NCBI GenBank assembly: GCA_965223845.1
Contig: CBDCXR010000004.1
Span: 832,001-896,000 of the forward strand
Source of the DNA: Planctomycetota bacterium
GTDB lineage: Bacteria; Planctomycetota; UBA8108; SXIK01
Direction of reading: 5' to 3'
Length of the DNA: 64,000 nt
Part shown: piece by piece, positions 27,777 through 34,617 of the stretch
How positions within the stretch are numbered: position 1 is the first letter of the stretch
Layout: every line of letters begins with the position of its first letter
Notes under the pieces: model-generated
Told to the model about the DNA's origin: nothing
Database searches by the model: none
The model's input: the letters and a program-made list of their open reading frames with translations, nothing else
Position numbers and translations under genes: made by a program

Positions 27777-29222
27777 TCAATCGTTCGGTGACAGCACTGG
27801 TAGGGACTTTCTCCACGACAAAACTCGCTCCCGCAGCCGATCGGTCAGCGCCGGATGGTCTCCGGCTACATTCACTCGTTCCGCCGTGGACGCCGCGAAA
27901 TCGTAGAGCTCGACGCGTGAGCCGTCCGCGTTGACGAGAAGCTTCCAGCGGCCGTCGCGGATCGCGAGATTGGGACTCTGGTCGGCGTCTAGACCGGGTC
28001 TCAGGTACGTCGAGTCGCGTCCGTATTCCCAGAGAATCGGACGCCGTCGCGGTGCGGAGCGACCGAGAAACGCTGCGCTTCGGTCTTCCCCGTCGAACGC
28101 GACTCCGTCGGGCGGCGGGACCCCTGCGAGCCGGCAGAATGTGGGGAAGAGATCGATGGCCCCGATGATCGAGCTCTCGTCGACGCGTCCGGCGGGGATC
28201 CGTGCCGGCCAGCGGACGATCAGCGGCATCCGAATTCCGCCTTCGTAGAGACTCCACTTGCGCCCGCGAAAGCCGGCCGTGCTCCCGGGTGGATCGAGTC
28301 CCTCGCGGTAGTACTTCTTCCACGCGGTCGGTCCGTTGTCGCTCGTGAGAACGACCATCGTATCCGCGCCGATCCCGAGCTCGTCGATGCGCCTCACGAG
28401 CCGTCCGATCTCGCGGTCCATGTCAGCGAGGACTGCGTAGAGCTTTCGCTCGTAATGATTCGCGGAGTACCGTTCGAAGCGCGCCAGCGACTCGTCGGTC
28501 GGCCGATGGGCATCGTGAACGTCGTTCAGCCAGAGATGGAGATAAACGGGCTTAGCTCGGTTTTGTTCGATGAACTGAATCGCACGATCGACGTAGATTC
28601 CCGTCAAGCGATGCTTCGGCTCGTAGCGCACGTCTCCGCGTCCGATCTTTCGGTGCTCGGCGGCGAGCTTTTCCGAGAAGATGACGCGATCGCCGAGACC
28701 TTCGAAGCACACGAGCGATTCATCGAAGCCGTACGCTTGCGGAAGAGGGGCTTCGACGACGTCGCGGCCTCCGCCCATGTGCCACTTCCCGAAGTGTGCC
28801 GTCGCGTAGCCGGCCGCCTGGAACGATCGCGCGATCGCCGGAGCGGCCGGGTCGAGAAAATCGCGCATTCCACGCGCGCGATTCCGCTTCTTCGTCGCGA
28901 GGTAGGAGTGGATCAGGTGGCGCGCGGGGAATTGTCCGGTCGTGATCCCGACGCGAGACGGCGAGCAGATCGGGGACGCGACGTAGAACTGTGTGAAGCG
29001 GGTCCCTTCCGCAGCGAGTCGATCGATCGCTGGCGTTCGCACGACCCGGTTTCCCGTGCAGCTCAGATCGCCGTACCCCATGTCGTCGATGAGGATGACG
29101 ACGATATTCGGCTTTTCGCGCGCGGCGACAAGCCTCGGCGAAAGGGTCGAGACGGCGACGTACAAGAGGAGCGCGAGAGCGAAGCAACGGACGCGGCCGA
29201 CCACGCGGAAGGACGGAGTCAT
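27777..29222 (-). CDS. Sulfatase, secreted
   Basis: PNIVVILIDDMGYGD, CSPSRVGITTG, GKWHMG, SDNGP, KWSLYEGGIRMP. Confidence 0.95.
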   Translation of the reverse strand: MTPSFRVVGRVRCFALALLLYVAVSTLSPRLVAAREKPNIVVILIDDMGYGDLSCTGNRVVRTPAIDRLAAEGTRFTQFYVASPICSPSRVGITTGQFPARHLIHSYLATKKRNRARGMRDFLDPAAPAIARSFQAAGYATAHFGKWHMGGGRDVVEAPLPQAYGFDESLVCFEGLGDRVIFSEKLAAEHRKIGRGDVRYEPKHRLTGIYVDRAIQFIEQNRAKPVYLHLWLNDVHDAHRPTDESLARFERYSANHYERKLYAVLADMDREIGRLVRRIDELGIGADTMVVLTSDNGPTAWKKYYREGLDPPGSTAGFRGRKWSLYEGGIRMPLIVRWPARIPAGRVDESSIIGAIDLFPTFCRLAGVPPPDGVAFDGEDRSAAFLGRSAPRRRPILWEYGRDSTYLRPGLDADQSPNLAIRDGRWKLLVNADGSRVELYDFAASTAERVNVAGDHPALTDRLRERVLSWRKSLPVLSPND

Positions 29223-29942: not shown

Positions 29943-31265
29943 TCATCGGAGTGGGAAATCGAACTTCACGCGTTTCGCGTCACGGACGACGACGACCTGG
30001 AGCCGATCTCCGCGTTTCCGAGTCTGCATCGCGTGGGCGAAGATTGCCGACTCCGTGACGAGATCGGAGCGTCCGTCGACTTCGACGAGAATGTCGCCCT
30101 TGCGGAGCCCGGCGTCCTTTGCGGTGCGGTGCTCGCCGTATTGTCCGACGTGCTCGACGCGGAGCGCGAGCTGCGACGGCTCGACCTTGGCCCGCGCGCG
30201 CTCTTCGCTCGACGCCGGCTTGAGAAGCATGCCGCCGAGGGCCATCCGCCTCAGATCCCAGCTCGTCGTTCGCCACGAGAGATCCCCCGAACGGCGCCAG
30301 CCGGGCGGAAGGTCGAGAGAGAGCTCGACGGCCCGCTCACCTCGGGTCACGACAGCGTCCAGACTAGCCGGCGACCCTGCGCAGTGGAGAACCCACTGGA
30401 CATCCGCTATCGAGATCAACGGCTGGCCGTCGAGGCGGCGGAGACGATCGCCGGGGCGAAAGCCCGCTCTCGCCGCCGGCGAGTCGGCGGTGACCGCGCT
30501 CACGCGCGCTTTCTCCTTGGGATCGAACGCGAGACCGACCACGTTCGGATGCGGCCACGGGAAGAGGATCTCATCCGGAATCTCCTGGGCGGATTCGCGG
30601 CGAAGTCGTCGCTCGGCGTTTCCGATCATGTGGCAGTGGATGCACTGGCGCGCGACGCCCTTCCCAAAGGTGAGCGTGGACGAGAACTTCTTGAGCGATG
30701 GATACGATTCCGGAGTGCGGTGGGGCGATGAGCGAGGGCGAGATTTCCCCGCGAGGTGCTCGCGATCGCGCGGGTAGCTCGCGTGGAGCTCGAGAGCTCC
30801 GGCGAGGGCCTGAGCGAAGCCGGCCAGCGAAATGTCCCGCGTCGCCTCTTTCTGACTCGAACGCGTTCCGTAACGACCGTAGATCGTACCGTCGGAGTTC
30901 AAGAAGAACGCGGCGAACGTGAGGTCGTAGTCGAACTCGAACCGCTCGAGATCGAGTCCGTTCCCCTGGATCACGCGGACGCGTACGAACTGGCGGAGCA
31001 ACTCGTCGATCGTCTTATCGTGACGAGCAACCTGCTCGTCGAAGCCTTGGCAGGCGTGTCACGGGATTCACCGAAAGACGAGGAGGAGCGGTTTTCCACT
31101 CGCCTTCGCTTCGCGAAAACCGGCGTCGACGTCGTTGTAGATCCAGCGACCGTCCGACTCGATTGCGGTCTTGTCGCGCTGGACGAGCGTGTCGCGATCT
31201 TGAGCGATCGCCGGCGCCGCGAACGCCGCGGCCGCCAAGACGATCCTCGTGAACTTCGATCTCAT
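29943..31265 (-). CDS. Secreted thioredoxin-fold (Trx7-like)/PDZ selenoprotein, 440 aa, two in-frame TGA (Sec66, Sec69)
   Basis: RBS AGAAGGAG + ATG 31265, signal peptide, WIYNDVDAGFREAKASGKPLLLVFR-TGA-IP-TGA-HACQGFDEQV, continuing in frame into ORF 29943..31001 (DYDLTF..YGRYG, CIHCH, two PDZ-like segments). TGAs at 31068-31070 and 31059-31061. Confidence 0.88.
31022..31040 (-). promoter_or_regulatory. Putative bacterial SECIS element
   Basis: GACGAGCA-GGT-TGCTCGTC: perfect 8-bp stem with a G-led loop, 26 nt after the second UGA and 35 nt after the first. The apex GCAGGUUGC resembles the E. coli fdhF SECIS apex GCAGGUCUGC. Confidence 0.72.
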
Positions 31266-31410
31266 GGGGAGTCTCCTTCTGGGATCAGGTTTCTCGGCCG
31301 ATACCCTTCCGTCGCATTCGGATTCGGGCATCGGGCGGGAATTCCCAGTGCCGATTGTCGCCGAAGCCCCGACGATCGCCAAGCGTCGACGAGACGCTGC
31401 ATGGGCCAGC

Positions 31411-32727
31411 TCACCTCGGGAAGGAGGCGAGCACGTCGCTGAACACTCCGCTCAGTTCGCGGGCATCGTCGAGCGAAAACACCATCGGTGGCTTGATCTT
31501 GATCACGTTGTGAAGTGGTCCGTCGACGCTGAGGAGGATGCCGCGCTCACGCATCGCCTCGACGATGGCGGCCGCCTCGCGATCGGCGGGTTCGAGAGTC
31601 GCACGATCGCGAACCAGCTCGATGCCGATGAAGAGTCCTCGTCCTCGGACGTCGCCGACGATCTCGTAGCGAGTGCCGAGCTCACGGAGGTCGTGGAGGA
31701 GAGCGGCGCCGACGCGATCCGCGTGCGCGCGCAGAGATTCTCCCTCGAGAACGTCGAGTACCGCGTTACCGGCCGCGCAGGATACGGGATTGCCACCGAA
31801 GGTGTTGAAGTACTCCATGCCGTTGTCGAACGCCGCGGAAATCTCCGAAGTCGTGACGACCGCCGCCAGCGGATGTCCGTTCCCGATCGGTTTCCCGAGG
31901 ACAACGAGATCAGGGACGACGCCCTGGAGCTCGAACGCCCACCAGTGCGCACCGCAGCGGCCGAATCCGACCTGGACCTCGTCCGCGATCGCGACTCCCC
32001 CGCGCGCGCGCACAGCTCTGTAGGCCGCGCGGAGATAGTCTTGGGGGAGCTCGATCTGTCCCGCGACGCCGAGCATCGATTCGCCGATGAACGCGGCGAG
32101 CGAACGACCGTTCAGCCGCGCCGCGTCATCGGCAAGGCCGACGTCGCGCGCGACGCCCTTCGCGTACTCGACGTCCGCTCGCTCGCCACGAAACTCGCCG
32201 CGGTAGCGGCACGGGAGTCGCGTGACGTGCGTGCTCGGCGGGGCTCCTCGTCCGCCAGGTCCGGCGAACTTGTAGTGGCTGACGTCGATCGCAGCCTGTG
32301 TGTTTCCGTGGTAAGCCGACTCGATGGCGACGACGTCGCTCCCGCCGGTGTACGTTCGAGCGATACGAAGTGCCAACTCCGTTGCTTCGCTCCCCGAGCA
32401 GGTCGGGTACACGACGCTCAATGGATCGGGCAGCAATTGCGCGAGCCGCTCGACGTAGGAAGAGAGCTGCGGATGGAGGTAGCGGGTGTTCGTGTTCAGA
32501 ACCGCCGCTTGTTCGCTGATCGCTCGAACGACGTGAGGGTGGCAGTGGCCGACGTGGCACACGTTGTTCACGCAGTCGAGGTAGCGCCGTCCCGTCTCGT
32601 CGAAGAGGTAGGCTCCTTCACCGCGGACGATCGTGAGCGGCGTGTCGTACGAGAGACTCAGTCCCCGGCCGAGGTGTTCGCGCCTCTGACGGAGGATCTG
32701 ACCGCTCTCACTCAGCTCTCGTGACAT
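31411..32727 (-). CDS. Class III PLP-dependent aminotransferase-fold enzyme (AGXT2L/phosphohydroxylysine phospho-lyase-like)
   Basis: [61 protein letters not shown] (PLP Lys), [15 protein letters not shown]. Start ATG 32727. Confidence 0.92.
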
Positions 32728-33742
32728 CGATTCGATTCCGAACGGTTTCCTCGACACGACGAAGATCTTCTTCCAGGAGCAACTCGAGGGCTCGGCTCGC
32801 CGGCCGCGCGCTGACCGACGCGTACGCATCGTGCGGGCGTCGGACGGCACGCCTCGCAGCGACGGTGAGGCTGATCGCAAGTCGGACCGCGGCGAGCCAA
32901 GGTACGAGTCCGGCCTCCTCCGCGGTCAACGGCCACGCGCGAGCGTAGCCCTCCGTCGCGAGTGCGATCGCCTCTCCCGGTCGCGGCGAGCCGAACGTGC
33001 CGTAGGCCGCGGCGACGCCCAGACCGCAGATCGTTTGCGTTCGAACTGCGTCGCCGAAGTCGATCAAGCCACGAATCTCCAGCTCCGGGCGATCCCCGCC
33101 GACGATCATATTGTGCTGGTTCCCGCCGTCGTTGTGGATGATGCTTCGCGGCAAACGCGCGAGACGAGGAACGATGTCCGTCTCGAAGTGTGCGAATACC
33201 GTCTCGACGGCGCGCCGAACGCTTTCGGAGTCGATGTCTCGGGTCCCTTGTCTCGCGGTGAGCGCCTGCGCGAGATCCCACTCGATCGCGCGGTCAGCCC
33301 GCTCGTCGCAGTAGTCGACGAGTGCGCGATCGACTTCGGCGACCGCGTGGCCGATGCTCCGAAGAAGATGCGGGCCGTAGCCGCCGCCGTCGCGATCGAC
33401 GGCATCGAGCAGCTCGCCTTCGACGAAGGAGAGCATCCACGCGATACGCTCGGCACCGGTCGCATCCTGAACGCAAAGGTAACGGTGCCCTCCCAGGGTG
33501 CGGATCGGTCGGGGGTGAGCGATGGCGATCCGCTTCGCCGCGAGGTGGTCGAGCATTCCGATTTGGAGTTCGACGAGCGCCCGAGTCGTGGCGGATGCGT
33601 CACGCATCACTTTGAGGACGTACCGCTCGCCGCGTGAGTCCGCGACGCGAAAGTTGAGGTCGTACTCGCCGTAGAGCGAAATCGCCTCGACGGGATCACC
33701 GAGCCAGTTTCGGCCGAGCTCGAGCGCCGCGTCATCCGTCAT
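32708..33742 (-). CDS. APH-family phosphotransferase (hydroxylysine kinase-like)
   Basis: GEYDLNF, YVLKV, WDL, IIHNDGGNQHN (Brenner-type HxD) and GLIDFGD; overlaps the downstream aminotransferase start. Confidence 0.88.
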   Translation of the reverse strand: MTDDAALELGRNWLGDPVEAISLYGEYDLNFRVADSRGERYVLKVMRDASATTRALVELQIGMLDHLAAKRIAIAHPRPIRTLGGHRYLCVQDATGAERIAWMLSFVEGELLDAVDRDGGGYGPHLLRSIGHAVAEVDRALVDYCDERADRAIEWDLAQALTARQGTRDIDSESVRRAVETVFAHFETDIVPRLARLPRSIIHNDGGNQHNMIVGGDRPELEIRGLIDFGDAVRTQTICGLGVAAAYGTFGSPRPGEAIALATEGYARAWPLTAEEAGLVPWLAAVRLAISLTVAARRAVRRPHDAYASVSARPASRALELLLEEDLRRVEETVRNRIDVTRAE

Positions 33743-33834
33743 GGGGCGACCGGAGGCACCGTTTGGGAGGGAAGCCCCTTGCTCGTTTCGCGGCGGCATC
33801 GGCGTGGGCCACCCGGTCGAGAACTCCGACGCGA

Positions 33835-34617
33835 TCAGGGGCGGACCGTCTCGAGCCACGTTTTCGCCATGAGCGCATGACCCGCCATCGAGGGATGAAC
33901 GCCGTCTCCGGCCCAATAGGCCGCCGGAGCATCGCGCGTTGCTTCATCGAACATCGTTTGGAACGGGACCCAAGTTGCACCGGCGGTTTCGGCGACCCGC
34001 TTGGCCGCTGCTCGCCGCTCATCGAATTCGGGAAACCACTTATCGGTCACCGCGCCACACCGAAGGACGAACGGCTCGCAGACGACGAGGCGAACGTTCG
34101 GGAGCGATTCTTTCGTCCGCCCGAGGAGAGCCGCGAAGCCGCTCTCGTAGTCGGCGACGGTGCCGGCGTACTTGCCGTTCAATTTGTGCCAGATGTCGTT
34201 CACGCCGATGAGGATGCTGAGGACATTCGGCTTCAAGTCGATCGTGTCTTTTAGCCAGCGCTTGTCGAGATCCGGAACGCGGTGGCCGGAGATCCCGCGA
34301 TTGTAGAGCTGGAGCCCGTCCTTCGGCCGGGTGGCGAGGAGCCATCCCGCGATGAACTGCGGGTAACCGCGGCCGAACGCACCGGCGTTGTTGGGACCCG
34401 CGTGACGCCGGTTGCGTCCCGCGTCGGTGATCGAGTCACCCTGAAAGAGGATGACGCTCTTCGCTTTGATCGAGCCGGCATCTTGGGCCGACACGGGAGT
34501 GGGAAACGCGCTCGATGCCGCCCAAAGCGAGCCGGCGGCGAGGGCAGAGGTCACGAGCTCGCGGCGGGAGATCGGTGCGGACGATTGGACGGGAAGGTCG
34601 TCGCTGGAGGTGGTCAT
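33835..34617 (-). CDS. Tat-exported SGNH/GDSL hydrolase
   Basis: SRRELV twin-arginine signal; FQGDSITD, NRGISG, IGVND, DGVHP. Confidence 0.93.
   Translation of the reverse strand: MTTSSDDLPVQSSAPISRRELVTSALAAGSLWAASSAFPTPVSAQDAGSIKAKSVILFQGDSITDAGRNRRHAGPNNAGAFGRGYPQFIAGWLLATRPKDGLQLYNRGISGHRVPDLDKRWLKDTIDLKPNVLSILIGVNDIWHKLNGKYAGTVADYESGFAALLGRTKESLPNVRLVVCEPFVLRCGAVTDKWFPEFDERRAAAKRVAETAGATWVPFQTMFDEATRDAPAAYWAGDGVHPSMAGHALMAKTWLETVRP

Follow-up and report, generated by a model that had tools for sequence, protein, structure and literature searches.

The usual picture of selenocysteine (Sec) insertion in bacteria is that of one UGA codon served by one SECIS element. In eukaryotes, selenoprotein L, reportedly described by Shchedrina et al. 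in 2007, is a UxxU protein of the thioredoxin fold with a diselenide bond; it is said to use a SECIS in the 3'-UTR and to have no PDZ domains and no CxHCH motif. In the accessible text of published reviews, the bacterial Trx7/PDZ family contains one Sec in a CxxU motif. The same accessible text gives other bacterial UxxU selenoproteins, namely a Prx-like thiol:disulfide oxidoreductase (UxxC/UxxU), the metal-binding protein NF041115 (UxxU) and an FmdB-family regulatory protein (UxxU). These likewise have a CxxC-type motif with two Sec separated by three positions and encoded by UGAs 9 nt apart, but their folds or families are unrelated to Trx7/PDZ. The bSECIS model, as set out in the legend of Fig. 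[quoted passage not shown]

A Trx7/PDZ selenoprotein gene was found on the minus strand at 29943..31265 of the window, which is the whole stretch of planctomycete DNA analysed (64,000 nucleotides). With TGA translated as U, 31265..29943 was one continuous frame of 440 codons, from an ATG at 31265..31263 to a terminal TGA at 29945..29943. A Shine-Dalgarno-like AAGGAG was read from the sequence 7 nt upstream of the ATG (31273..31278, minus strand). The first in-frame TGA (codon 66, 31068..31070) and the second (codon 69, 31059..31061) occupied the N-terminal and C-terminal positions of a CxxC-type motif, respectively, and the active-site context was ...GKPLLLVFR-U-I-P-U-H-A-C-Q-G-F-D.... The codon of Cys72, which completes UxxUxxC, was located at 31050..31052. 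Under genetic code table 11, the frame was broken into ORFs 31068..31382 and 29943..31001, the second starting with TTG, and the entry for this DNA in the public protein collection was a 352-aa fragment only. The original prediction had joined these two minus-strand ORFs into one frame broken by TGA at Cys positions, with a ribosome-binding site upstream of the first TGA and only a TTG start for the downstream ORF, and had expected standard gene callers to fragment the gene; sequence and translation agreed with it. The region 30900..31300 was also compared with four per-run assemblies from two samples of one study, which were contigs rather than raw reads, and 0 letters differed. These four contig assemblies may be the source of the genome itself.

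The full read-through protein scored 410.7 bits against NCBIfam model NF041199 (cut-off 300), covering model positions 2–389 of 390, and the gene scored 394.3 bits in a six-frame search of the genome. Its architecture was that of the family: a Thioredoxin_7 domain, with the CxxC-type motif after the first Trx strand, followed by two PDZ domains. The Trx7/PDZ (seleno)protein family named in the original prediction is NF041199. The position of the C-terminal Sec was the same as in the published family, and an mRNA hairpin (hairpin 2, below) was shared with CxxU genes. The locus differed from NF041199 as published in that the N-terminal Cys was also replaced by Sec (UxxU) and an extra mRNA hairpin (hairpin 1) preceded the shared SECIS. 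Since the reviews, in their accessible text, give the family as one-Sec CxxU, the di-Sec form and the extra hairpin are new relative to that text, and the family itself is known.

The N-terminus contained a probable Sec-type signal peptide, MRSKFTRIVLAAAAFAAPAIA (31203..31265, minus strand), recognized by inspection, with cleavage expected after AIA. It lacks both a twin-arginine motif and a lipobox Cys. A signal peptide upstream of the first TGA had been part of the original prediction. The Thioredoxin_7 domain covered residues 41–123 (30897..31145; Pfam PF13899, E 2.5e-13). PDZ domain 1 covered residues 250–314 (30324..30518; Pfam PF13180/PF17820), and PDZ domain 2 covered about residues 378–436 (29958..30134), where NCBIfam HtrA/DegQ/DegS PDZ models matched residues 378–436 and tandem-PDZ folds were also matched. 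All three domains were encoded on the minus strand. The AF2 model (pLDDT 91.2, pTM 0.88) had a helix at residues 2–14, in the signal-peptide region, and the active-site loop was the part of the modelled Trx domain with the lowest confidence (10-residue block means 82 and 74). Whole-protein Foldseek returned only PDZ-tandem matches, and the N-domain was then folded and searched alone. It matched AGR3, 3f9u, DsbH and DsbD-gamma with Z scores of 10.1, 10.0, 8.6 and 8.0, respectively. Across the Thioredoxin_7-type fold matches, Z was 8.0–10.1 and rmsd 2.4–2.9 over 106–122 residues. DsbD gamma (1vrs_D), DsbH (2ju5), the C-terminal domain of an exported cytochrome c biogenesis-related protein (3f9u) and AGR2/AGR3/ERp18 (3ph9, 1sen) have this same fold and are also located outside the cytoplasm, but they carry Cys and not Sec and have neither the CxHCH linker nor the PDZ tandem. 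PDZ1–PDZ2 of DegP/DegQ/HtrA and RseP aligned with the C-terminal half of the protein (E 1.9e-14 for the DegP PDZ match). No trypsin-like protease domain was found, only the PDZ region being matched, and the TIGR02037 score was 44.2 bits vs a cut-off of 416.2. The name 'serine protease Do', given to homologs by one source, therefore finds no support.

To describe the motif across the family, homologs were collected by alignment-based extraction, in which 174 of 177 loci were kept, representing 171 distinct genes; L072, L073 and L074 were left out as partial or very distant matches. The two motif positions were UxxU in 89 genes, CxxU in 51 and CxxC in 31, and UxxC was found in 0. Every TGA counted in the 174 loci fell on one of two alignment columns. 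Opposite U66 and U69, all 171 distinct homologs had C or U, as the original prediction had expected, and never Trp or Gly. This pattern excludes nonsense mutations and sequencing errors, the former having already been judged unlikely in the original prediction. Its third Cys was present and common, being kept in 158 of the 171 genes, but it is not universal. The family was found in 133 of the 401 Planctomycetota genomes searched, about a third, and also in Verrucomicrobiota. Among the 150 matches listed in the phylum sample, 73 had two TGA, 44 had one and 33 had none, so that the di-Sec form, thought rare in the original prediction, is the commonest state of the family in the sampled genomes. 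Full-length family entries in the public collection were Cys forms only.

The genome encoded selA, selB and selD, with scores of 453, 320 and 308 bits, respectively, as well as tRNA-Sec (anticodon tca), so the search for selA, selB, selC and selD proposed with the original prediction returned the complete set. Another selenoprotein candidate in the genome was a GPx with 1 TGA. From the in-frame UGAs aligned with Cys of homologs and the presence of this machinery, we infer that Sec is inserted at both codons by SelA/SelB/SelC/SelD. At the level of sequence, the locus was confirmed as a real gene, predicted to encode an exported redox protein in which both active-site Cys are replaced by UGA-encoded Sec.

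SECIS-like hairpins, which had been listed among the checks, were found downstream of the TGAs. Hairpin 2, GACGAGC(A)-GGU-(U)GCUCGUC, at 31022..31040 on the minus strand (+30..+48 from the first UGA), is a canonical bSECIS-type stem-loop common to UxxU and CxxU genes. At least 6 of its 7 pairs were formed in 75 of 89 UU genes and 33 of 51 CU genes, compared with 0 of 31 CC genes. Across 48 Sec forms, 85.4% of cells were paired vs 24–43% with the partner slid, and 33 cells had changes on both sides vs 7.9 in shuffles, a value reached by 0 of 500 shuffles. One pair appeared as GC, AU, UA, CG and GU. The loop, A-GGU-U, agrees with the published bSECIS pattern. No Rfam family matched 30850..31150 at E 10.

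Hairpin 1, GCCU-GCCA-AGGC, was located at 31044..31055 on the minus strand, beginning 13 nt past the first UGA, and is characteristic of UxxU genes. The Cys72 codon lies within it, across the boundary of stem and loop, from the final 5'-arm pair to the second base of the loop. In the stretch that precedes the shared SECIS (+12..+29 from the first UGA), a hairpin with an MFE of -3 or lower was present in 83 of 89 UU, 15 of 51 CU and 9 of 31 CC genes; six UU genes thus had no hairpin 1, and some stem occurred there in the 15 CU and 9 CC genes. Measured against shuffled versions of itself, the hairpin ranked above 95% of them in 67 of 89 UU, 4 of 51 CU and 1 of 31 CC genes. The UU/non-UU state changed at least 25 times on a FastTree tree of 171 rows. 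In 15 phylogenetically independent pairs from that tree, hairpin 1 differed the same way as the state in 7.8, the opposite way in 1.2 and showed no difference in 6.0, with a median p of 0.039 and a range over pairings up to 0.45; with the shuffle criterion p was 0.0215. On a first, smaller tree, 7 pairs gave a median p of 0.125, which was not significant. The association between hairpin 1 and UxxU therefore survives phylogenetically independent pairs at a median p of about 0.04. The presence of hairpin 1 follows that of the first UGA, and it is probably needed for decoding that codon.

The reading that we favour, with a probability of about 0.85, is an exported Trx7/PDZ protein in which Sec66 and Sec69 would be inserted by means of two adjacent hairpins in the coding sequence, and which would act as a periplasmic selenol/diselenide oxidoreductase. 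The 440-residue product would consist of the signal peptide, the Trx7 domain, the CxHCH linker and the two PDZ domains. Decoding of UGA66 and UGA69 by the Sec machinery would be steered by the two neighbouring mRNA hairpins. Hairpin 2 would be the ordinary SECIS of the family, also found in one-Sec CxxU genes and lost in CxxC genes, and hairpin 1 an additional element required for the first UGA. The tandem DegP/DegQ-type PDZ domains would serve to bind peptides or proteins as substrates; given its resemblance to DsbD-gamma and DsbH in fold, the protein may be a reductase or isomerase. Sec66 and Sec69 may form a diselenide; selenoprotein L, which is like this protein in having UxxU in a thioredoxin-like fold, is reportedly a precedent for a diselenide redox centre.

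One alternative is a broken or prematurely terminated gene, with the TGAs acting as stops, so that a 65-residue peptide, perhaps with a separate 352-residue protein started from TTG, would be made, or the locus would be a pseudogene. Table 11 indeed gives exactly two ORFs, automatic annotation has only the 352-aa piece, and TGA is the commonest ordinary stop of this genome: over 1 Mb, 416 of the 664 long open frames end in it. We consider this explanation very improbable, as it must be set against the two TGA columns shared by 89 distinct genes, the single TGA in 51 others and Cys elsewhere, as well as the conserved covarying hairpins after the TGAs and the full Sec machinery. The downstream piece, moreover, would have no signal peptide and only half of the Trx fold. 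The same stop usage bears against a general or local reassignment by which UGA would be read as Trp, Gly or Cys: the gene itself and 4 of the 5 neighbouring genes checked also end in TGA. Reassignment of UGA to Trp is known in some bacteria, including some Verrucomicrobiota, according to the accessible part of PMC13462651. Here, however, Cys and never Trp or Gly stands opposite both UGA columns, and tRNA-Sec and selA/B/D are encoded, so that we regard reassignment as less probable still than a broken gene.

More weight attaches to the possibility that a single SECIS serves both codons, hairpin 2 recruiting SelB for UGA66 and then for UGA69, with hairpin 1 not binding SelB and being a spacer, a pause site that would slow the ribosome and act against RF2 at the first UGA, or a by-product of the local sequence. 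The distance to hairpin 2 is 35 nt for UGA1 and 26 nt for UGA2; since both values are inside the 16–37 nt rule, decoding does not strictly call for another SECIS. In this gene the bSECIS constraints held for hairpin 2 with respect to both UGAs and for hairpin 1 with respect to UGA1. Over the UU genes, they held for UGA1 in 86 of 89 with hairpin 2 and in just 50 of 89 with hairpin 1; these constraints are loose, as CxxC genes also passed them, 11 of 31 in the window of hairpin 2 and 3 of 31 in that of hairpin 1. The loops of hairpin 1, mostly GCAA, GCA or GCGA around the Cys72 codon, also do not follow the G[G|U] pattern of hairpin 2. On the other hand, hairpin 1 tracks the first UGA over the state changes described above, which argues that it is not a mere by-product of local sequence. 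Its apical loop starts 16 nt past UGA1 in 25 of 32 genes, which is the shortest spacing that the published rule allows, and its stem is retained through 49 distinct 5' arms among UU genes, the encoded residues being free to vary. Taken together, a single SECIS for both codons is credible but rather less probable than its negation. For hairpin 1 itself, the most likely role, by somewhat better than even odds, is that of a second minimal SECIS; a role in assisting hairpin 2, through spacing or pausing, has a smaller, though real, chance. We propose only tentatively the more complete scheme, in which each UGA would have its own SECIS-type hairpin, the two in tandem within 50 nt, and the first would have been toggled in step with the change between Cys and Sec at residue 66, on at least about 25 occasions. 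In this scheme the protein would provide the periplasm with a diselenide centre, possibly wired to haem c on CxxCH.

That last element touches on a different function for the protein. Between the Trx7 and PDZ domains, the linker contained C208-I-H210-C211-H212 (30630..30644, minus strand), a nearly invariant CxHCH motif that includes the haem-c attachment motif CxxCH and was present in 170 of 171 genes. U-x-x-U(-x-x-C), perhaps together with CxHCH, could form a metal or metalloid site (e.g. Cu, Hg, Zn or Ni), or a haem c on CxxCH could exchange electrons with the selenols, in which case the protein would serve in metal handling or electron transfer rather than as a simple disulfide oxidoreductase. 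Sec-route export, judged from the N-terminus by inspection, would fit periplasmic haem attachment, and in other clades a PSCyt1/PSCyt2 cytochrome-type protein adjoins the gene at 13 loci. However, linker residues 165–250 matched no Pfam family, cytochrome or metal-binding, at E 10 (fold searches barely covered the linker), Cys72 is absent from 13 of 171 genes, and the N-domain fold is of the thiol-disulfide oxidoreductase type. We therefore consider a metal or haem function unlikely, and retain the periplasmic selenol/diselenide oxidoreductase as the preferred reading.

Because callers fragment the gene and the di-Sec form is widespread, the selenoproteomes of Planctomycetota and Verrucomicrobiota are likely to be under-counted. 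The family also provides dozens of natural gene pairs that differ in the second UGA and one small hairpin, which makes it possible to ask with reporters whether one SECIS serves two codons or each codon has its own. If each UGA does have its own SECIS, these genes would constitute a natural experimental series on the way in which Sec codons so close together are dealt with by SelB and the ribosome. The redox potential of an exported UxxU centre would be very low. A centre of such low potential is unusual in the oxidising periplasm and bears on the reason why Sec replaces Cys.

The neighbours of the gene in the window were a uracil phosphoribosyltransferase, a sulfatase, a class-III aminotransferase, an APH-family kinase and a GDSL lipase. 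None of them recurred beside homologs, except sulfatases at 4 other loci. Planctomycete genomes are very rich in sulfatases, and for this reason these were rejected as meaningful neighbours. An all-against-all comparison of flanking ORFs gave clade-specific neighbours only, with no conserved neighbourhood pointing to a substrate or redox partner. The same genome carried two paralogs, one of which was likewise UxxU.

Translated with TGA as selenocysteine (Sec, U), positions 31265 to 29943 of the minus strand form one frame of 440 sense codons that ends in a terminal TGA. The only interruptions are the in-frame TGAs at codons 66 (31070..31068, minus strand) and 69 (31061..31059, minus strand), in the context ...GKPLLLVFR-U-I-P-U-H-A-C-Q-G-F-D.... 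The sequence AAGGAG lies 7 nt 5' of the ATG, and the protein opens with MRSKFTRIVLAAAAFAAPAIA-QD, by inspection a probable signal peptide of the Sec type. Table 11 calling cuts the gene into two ORFs, the second beginning with TTG, and for this DNA a large public protein collection has only the product of that second ORF, a 352-residue fragment (P0003). The original prediction had described two ORFs in the same frame, the second with a TTG start, and had expected gene callers to fragment the gene; both points were borne out. From 30900 to 31300, there were 0 differing letters compared with the separate contig assemblies of four public runs (two samples, one study). These lend weak independent support, being contigs rather than raw reads and perhaps the genome's own source. 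The neighbours, at 27777..29222 and 31411..33916 on the minus strand, encode a sulfatase, a uracil phosphoribosyltransferase, a class-III aminotransferase, an APH-family kinase and a GDSL lipase, with the aminotransferase ORF overlapping that of the kinase. None of these neighbours was kept beside the homologs in the neighbourhood comparison of homologous loci.

A check of the source genome (7.93 Mb in 4 contigs; completeness 91.7%) for selA, selB, selC and selD found selA, selB and selD at 453, 320 (cut-off 242) and 308 bits, respectively, and a tRNA-Sec with anticodon tca. The Sec machinery of this genome is full. A glutathione peroxidase match with one in-frame TGA (G000:C4:6272189-6272506) is a candidate for a second selenoprotein in the same genome. 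TGA is not generally reassigned: over the initial 1 Mb of the main contig, 416 of 664 long open frames terminate in it, as do the gene under study and four of five neighbours that were checked.

The read-through protein contains Thioredoxin_7 at residues 41-123 and two PDZ domains (Pfam). It scored 410.7 bits against NCBIfam NF041199, "Trx7/PDZ domain-containing (seleno)protein", whose curated cut-off is 300; the family named in the original prediction exists. Three family members are present in the source genome: the window gene and two paralogs on contig C4 (G000:C4:324650-325825 and C4:5875545-5876708), one of them a CxxC form (422.7 bits) and one a UxxU form (398.3 bits). Matches above the cut-off were found in 21 of 61 relatives' genomes, and among the best 32 matches listed, two TGAs were present in 23, one in 3 and none in 6. 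Of 401 Planctomycetota genomes sampled evenly across the phylum, 133 gave a match with an E-value of 1e-60 or lower; a hand count of the 150 matches listed (there were 26 further) gave 73, 44 and 33 with two, one and no TGA, respectively. Named records of the family come from Planctomycetota and Verrucomicrobiota. The full-length relatives in the public collection are Cys forms, namely six individual sequences and the 59 database rows of alignment A1, in which Cys is invariant at both positions.

In all, 177 loci were compared, with the motif placed by alignment to the window protein. After removal of three loci that were partial or very distant, 171 of the remaining 174 were distinct over the 66 nt 3' of the motif's first codon. 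These comprised 89 UxxU, 51 CxxU, 31 CxxC and no UxxC genes, and residues other than C or U were found at columns 66 and 69 in none of them, as had been predicted. This pattern excludes two independent nonsense mutations, which had already been judged very unlikely, and likewise sequencing errors. Exchange between Cys and Sec among homologs is the standard mark of a selenoprotein, and here it occurs at two positions. The observation of the original prediction is confirmed: the gene is genuine and belongs to a known selenoprotein family. The interpretation offered there is supported too, except that the di-Sec form was called rare, which does not agree with the share of UxxU genes among the distinct loci or of two-TGA matches among those listed from the phylum. 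Sec at the first position was seen solely alongside Sec at the second, and the lack of UxxC among the 171 loci suggests an ordered evolutionary path CxxC - CxxU - UxxU, in either direction. On one contig, a UxxU homolog (L052/L065) has a run of N right after its second hairpin, and what seems to be another copy of its motif lies 44 codons on; masked sequence or a scaffolding gap, combined with duplication of this region, is the probable cause.

Two mRNA stem-loops lie within the coding sequence 3' of both UGAs; positions are numbered with the initial base of the first UGA as 0. Hairpin 2, GACGAGC(A)-GGU-(U)GCUCGUC, is located at 31040..31022 on the minus strand (+30..+48) and has seven pairs in fixed register. 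Six or more of these pairs were formed in 75 of 89 UxxU, 33 of 51 CxxU and 0 of 31 CxxC genes. With 48 Sec forms aligned without gaps, pairing was seen in 85.4% of cells, compared with 24-43% when the 3' partner was slid. Double-sided changes occurred in 33 cells compared with 7.9 in shuffles (0 of 500 shuffles as high), and one pair occurs as GC, AU, UA, CG and GU. The distance to hairpin 2 is 35 nt for the first UGA and 26 nt for the second. Both values fall inside the 16-37 nt spacing of the bacterial SECIS (bSECIS) model in the Fig. 2 legend of PMC13188914, so by itself hairpin 2 is formally in range of both UGAs. Its loop, A-GGU-U, agrees with the bSECIS pattern given there. The constraints published in that source (PMC13188914) are loose, because 11 of 31 Cys forms satisfy them in the hairpin-2 window. 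We read hairpin 2 as the SECIS of the family.

Hairpin 1, GCCU-GCCA-AGGC, is located around the codon of residue 72 at 31055..31044 on the minus strand (region +12..+29). Its minimum free energy did not exceed -3 kcal/mol in 83 of 89 UxxU, 15 of 51 CxxU and 9 of 31 CxxC genes, and its stability surpassed that of 95% of its shuffled versions in 67 of 89, 4 of 51 and 1 of 31, respectively. Among UxxU genes, there were 49 different 5' arms, with the encoded residues free to vary, and the register moves by one base from lineage to lineage. The UxxU state changed at least 25 times on the tree of 171 proteins. In 15 phylogenetically independent pairs, hairpin 1 changed in step with UxxU in 7.8, against it in 1.2 and showed no difference in 6.0 (sign test, median p 0.039, or 0.0215 by the shuffle criterion, and up to 0.45 over pairings); on a smaller tree built first, p was 0.125. 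Only 50 of 89 UxxU genes have a hairpin 1 that fits the published constraints with respect to the first UGA. Our reading is that hairpin 1 would be an added element, necessary for the first UGA, and would act as a second minimal SECIS or else as a helper. Three CxxC genes (L025, L053 and L039), in a CxxC clade adjoining the window's clade, keep a hairpin-1-like stem (-8.4, -4.4 and -3.1 kcal/mol, respectively) without hairpin 2, which may be a leftover of Sec-to-Cys reversion.

A 2022 review has the entry "PDZ domain-containing protein, pfam13899, CxxU" (PMC9312934). In the accessible text of the 2008 GOS paper, UxxU is given for a Prx-like family only (PMC2398784), and the main text of the BSepDB paper does not mention PDZ, Trx7 or UxxU (PMC13326102). 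UxxU motifs as such are known from other bacterial families. A search of article texts, mostly from open-access journals, turned up neither the UxxU form of the Trx7/PDZ family nor paired hairpins for two bacterial UGAs. UxxU together with the second hairpin is a family variant without description in the accessible literature, and it is of interest mainly because the decoding of two UGA codons spaced by 9 nt can be put to the test.

The AlphaFold2 model of the window protein, from an alignment of 60 sequences, was confident, with a pLDDT of 91.2 and a pTM of 0.88, and the N-domain folded by itself had a thioredoxin-like fold with a pLDDT of 90.4. Among the nearest solved structures to the N-domain were AGR3, the C-terminal domain of an exported cytochrome c biogenesis-related protein (3f9u), DsbH and DsbD-gamma, with Z scores of 10.1, 10.0, 8.6 and 8.0, respectively. 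DegQ, DegP and RseP have a PDZ tandem similar to the C-terminal half of the protein. One source names several relatives "serine protease Do", which is unsupported, as neither the window protein nor its family has a protease domain. What is established about function is the fold, together with the motifs and a likely export signal. We infer that the protein is a periplasmic selenol/diselenide oxidoreductase, in which the PDZ tandem would hold peptide or protein substrates, as it does in DegP and DegQ.

The third Cys of the predicted UxxUxxC, Cys72 (31050..31052, minus strand), is found in the window's gene and overall in 158 of 171 genes, including every CxxC gene. It is missing from the other 13, all of them Sec forms (9 UxxU and 4 CxxU) with A, S, G, N or F instead. 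The linker between Trx7 and PDZ contains C208-x-H210-C211-H212 (30630..30644, minus strand) in 170 of 171 genes. This CxHCH includes the haem-c attachment motif CxxCH; the linker had no Pfam family match and is scarcely covered by the fold searches. The motif could carry haem, bind metal or form a second redox pair. Among the homologous loci compared, no conserved gene neighbourhood backs any particular partner. A PSCyt1/PSCyt2 'planctomycete cytochrome C' protein, absent beside the window's gene, adjoins a family gene in 13 loci (among L061, L070 and L075-L093, in other clades).
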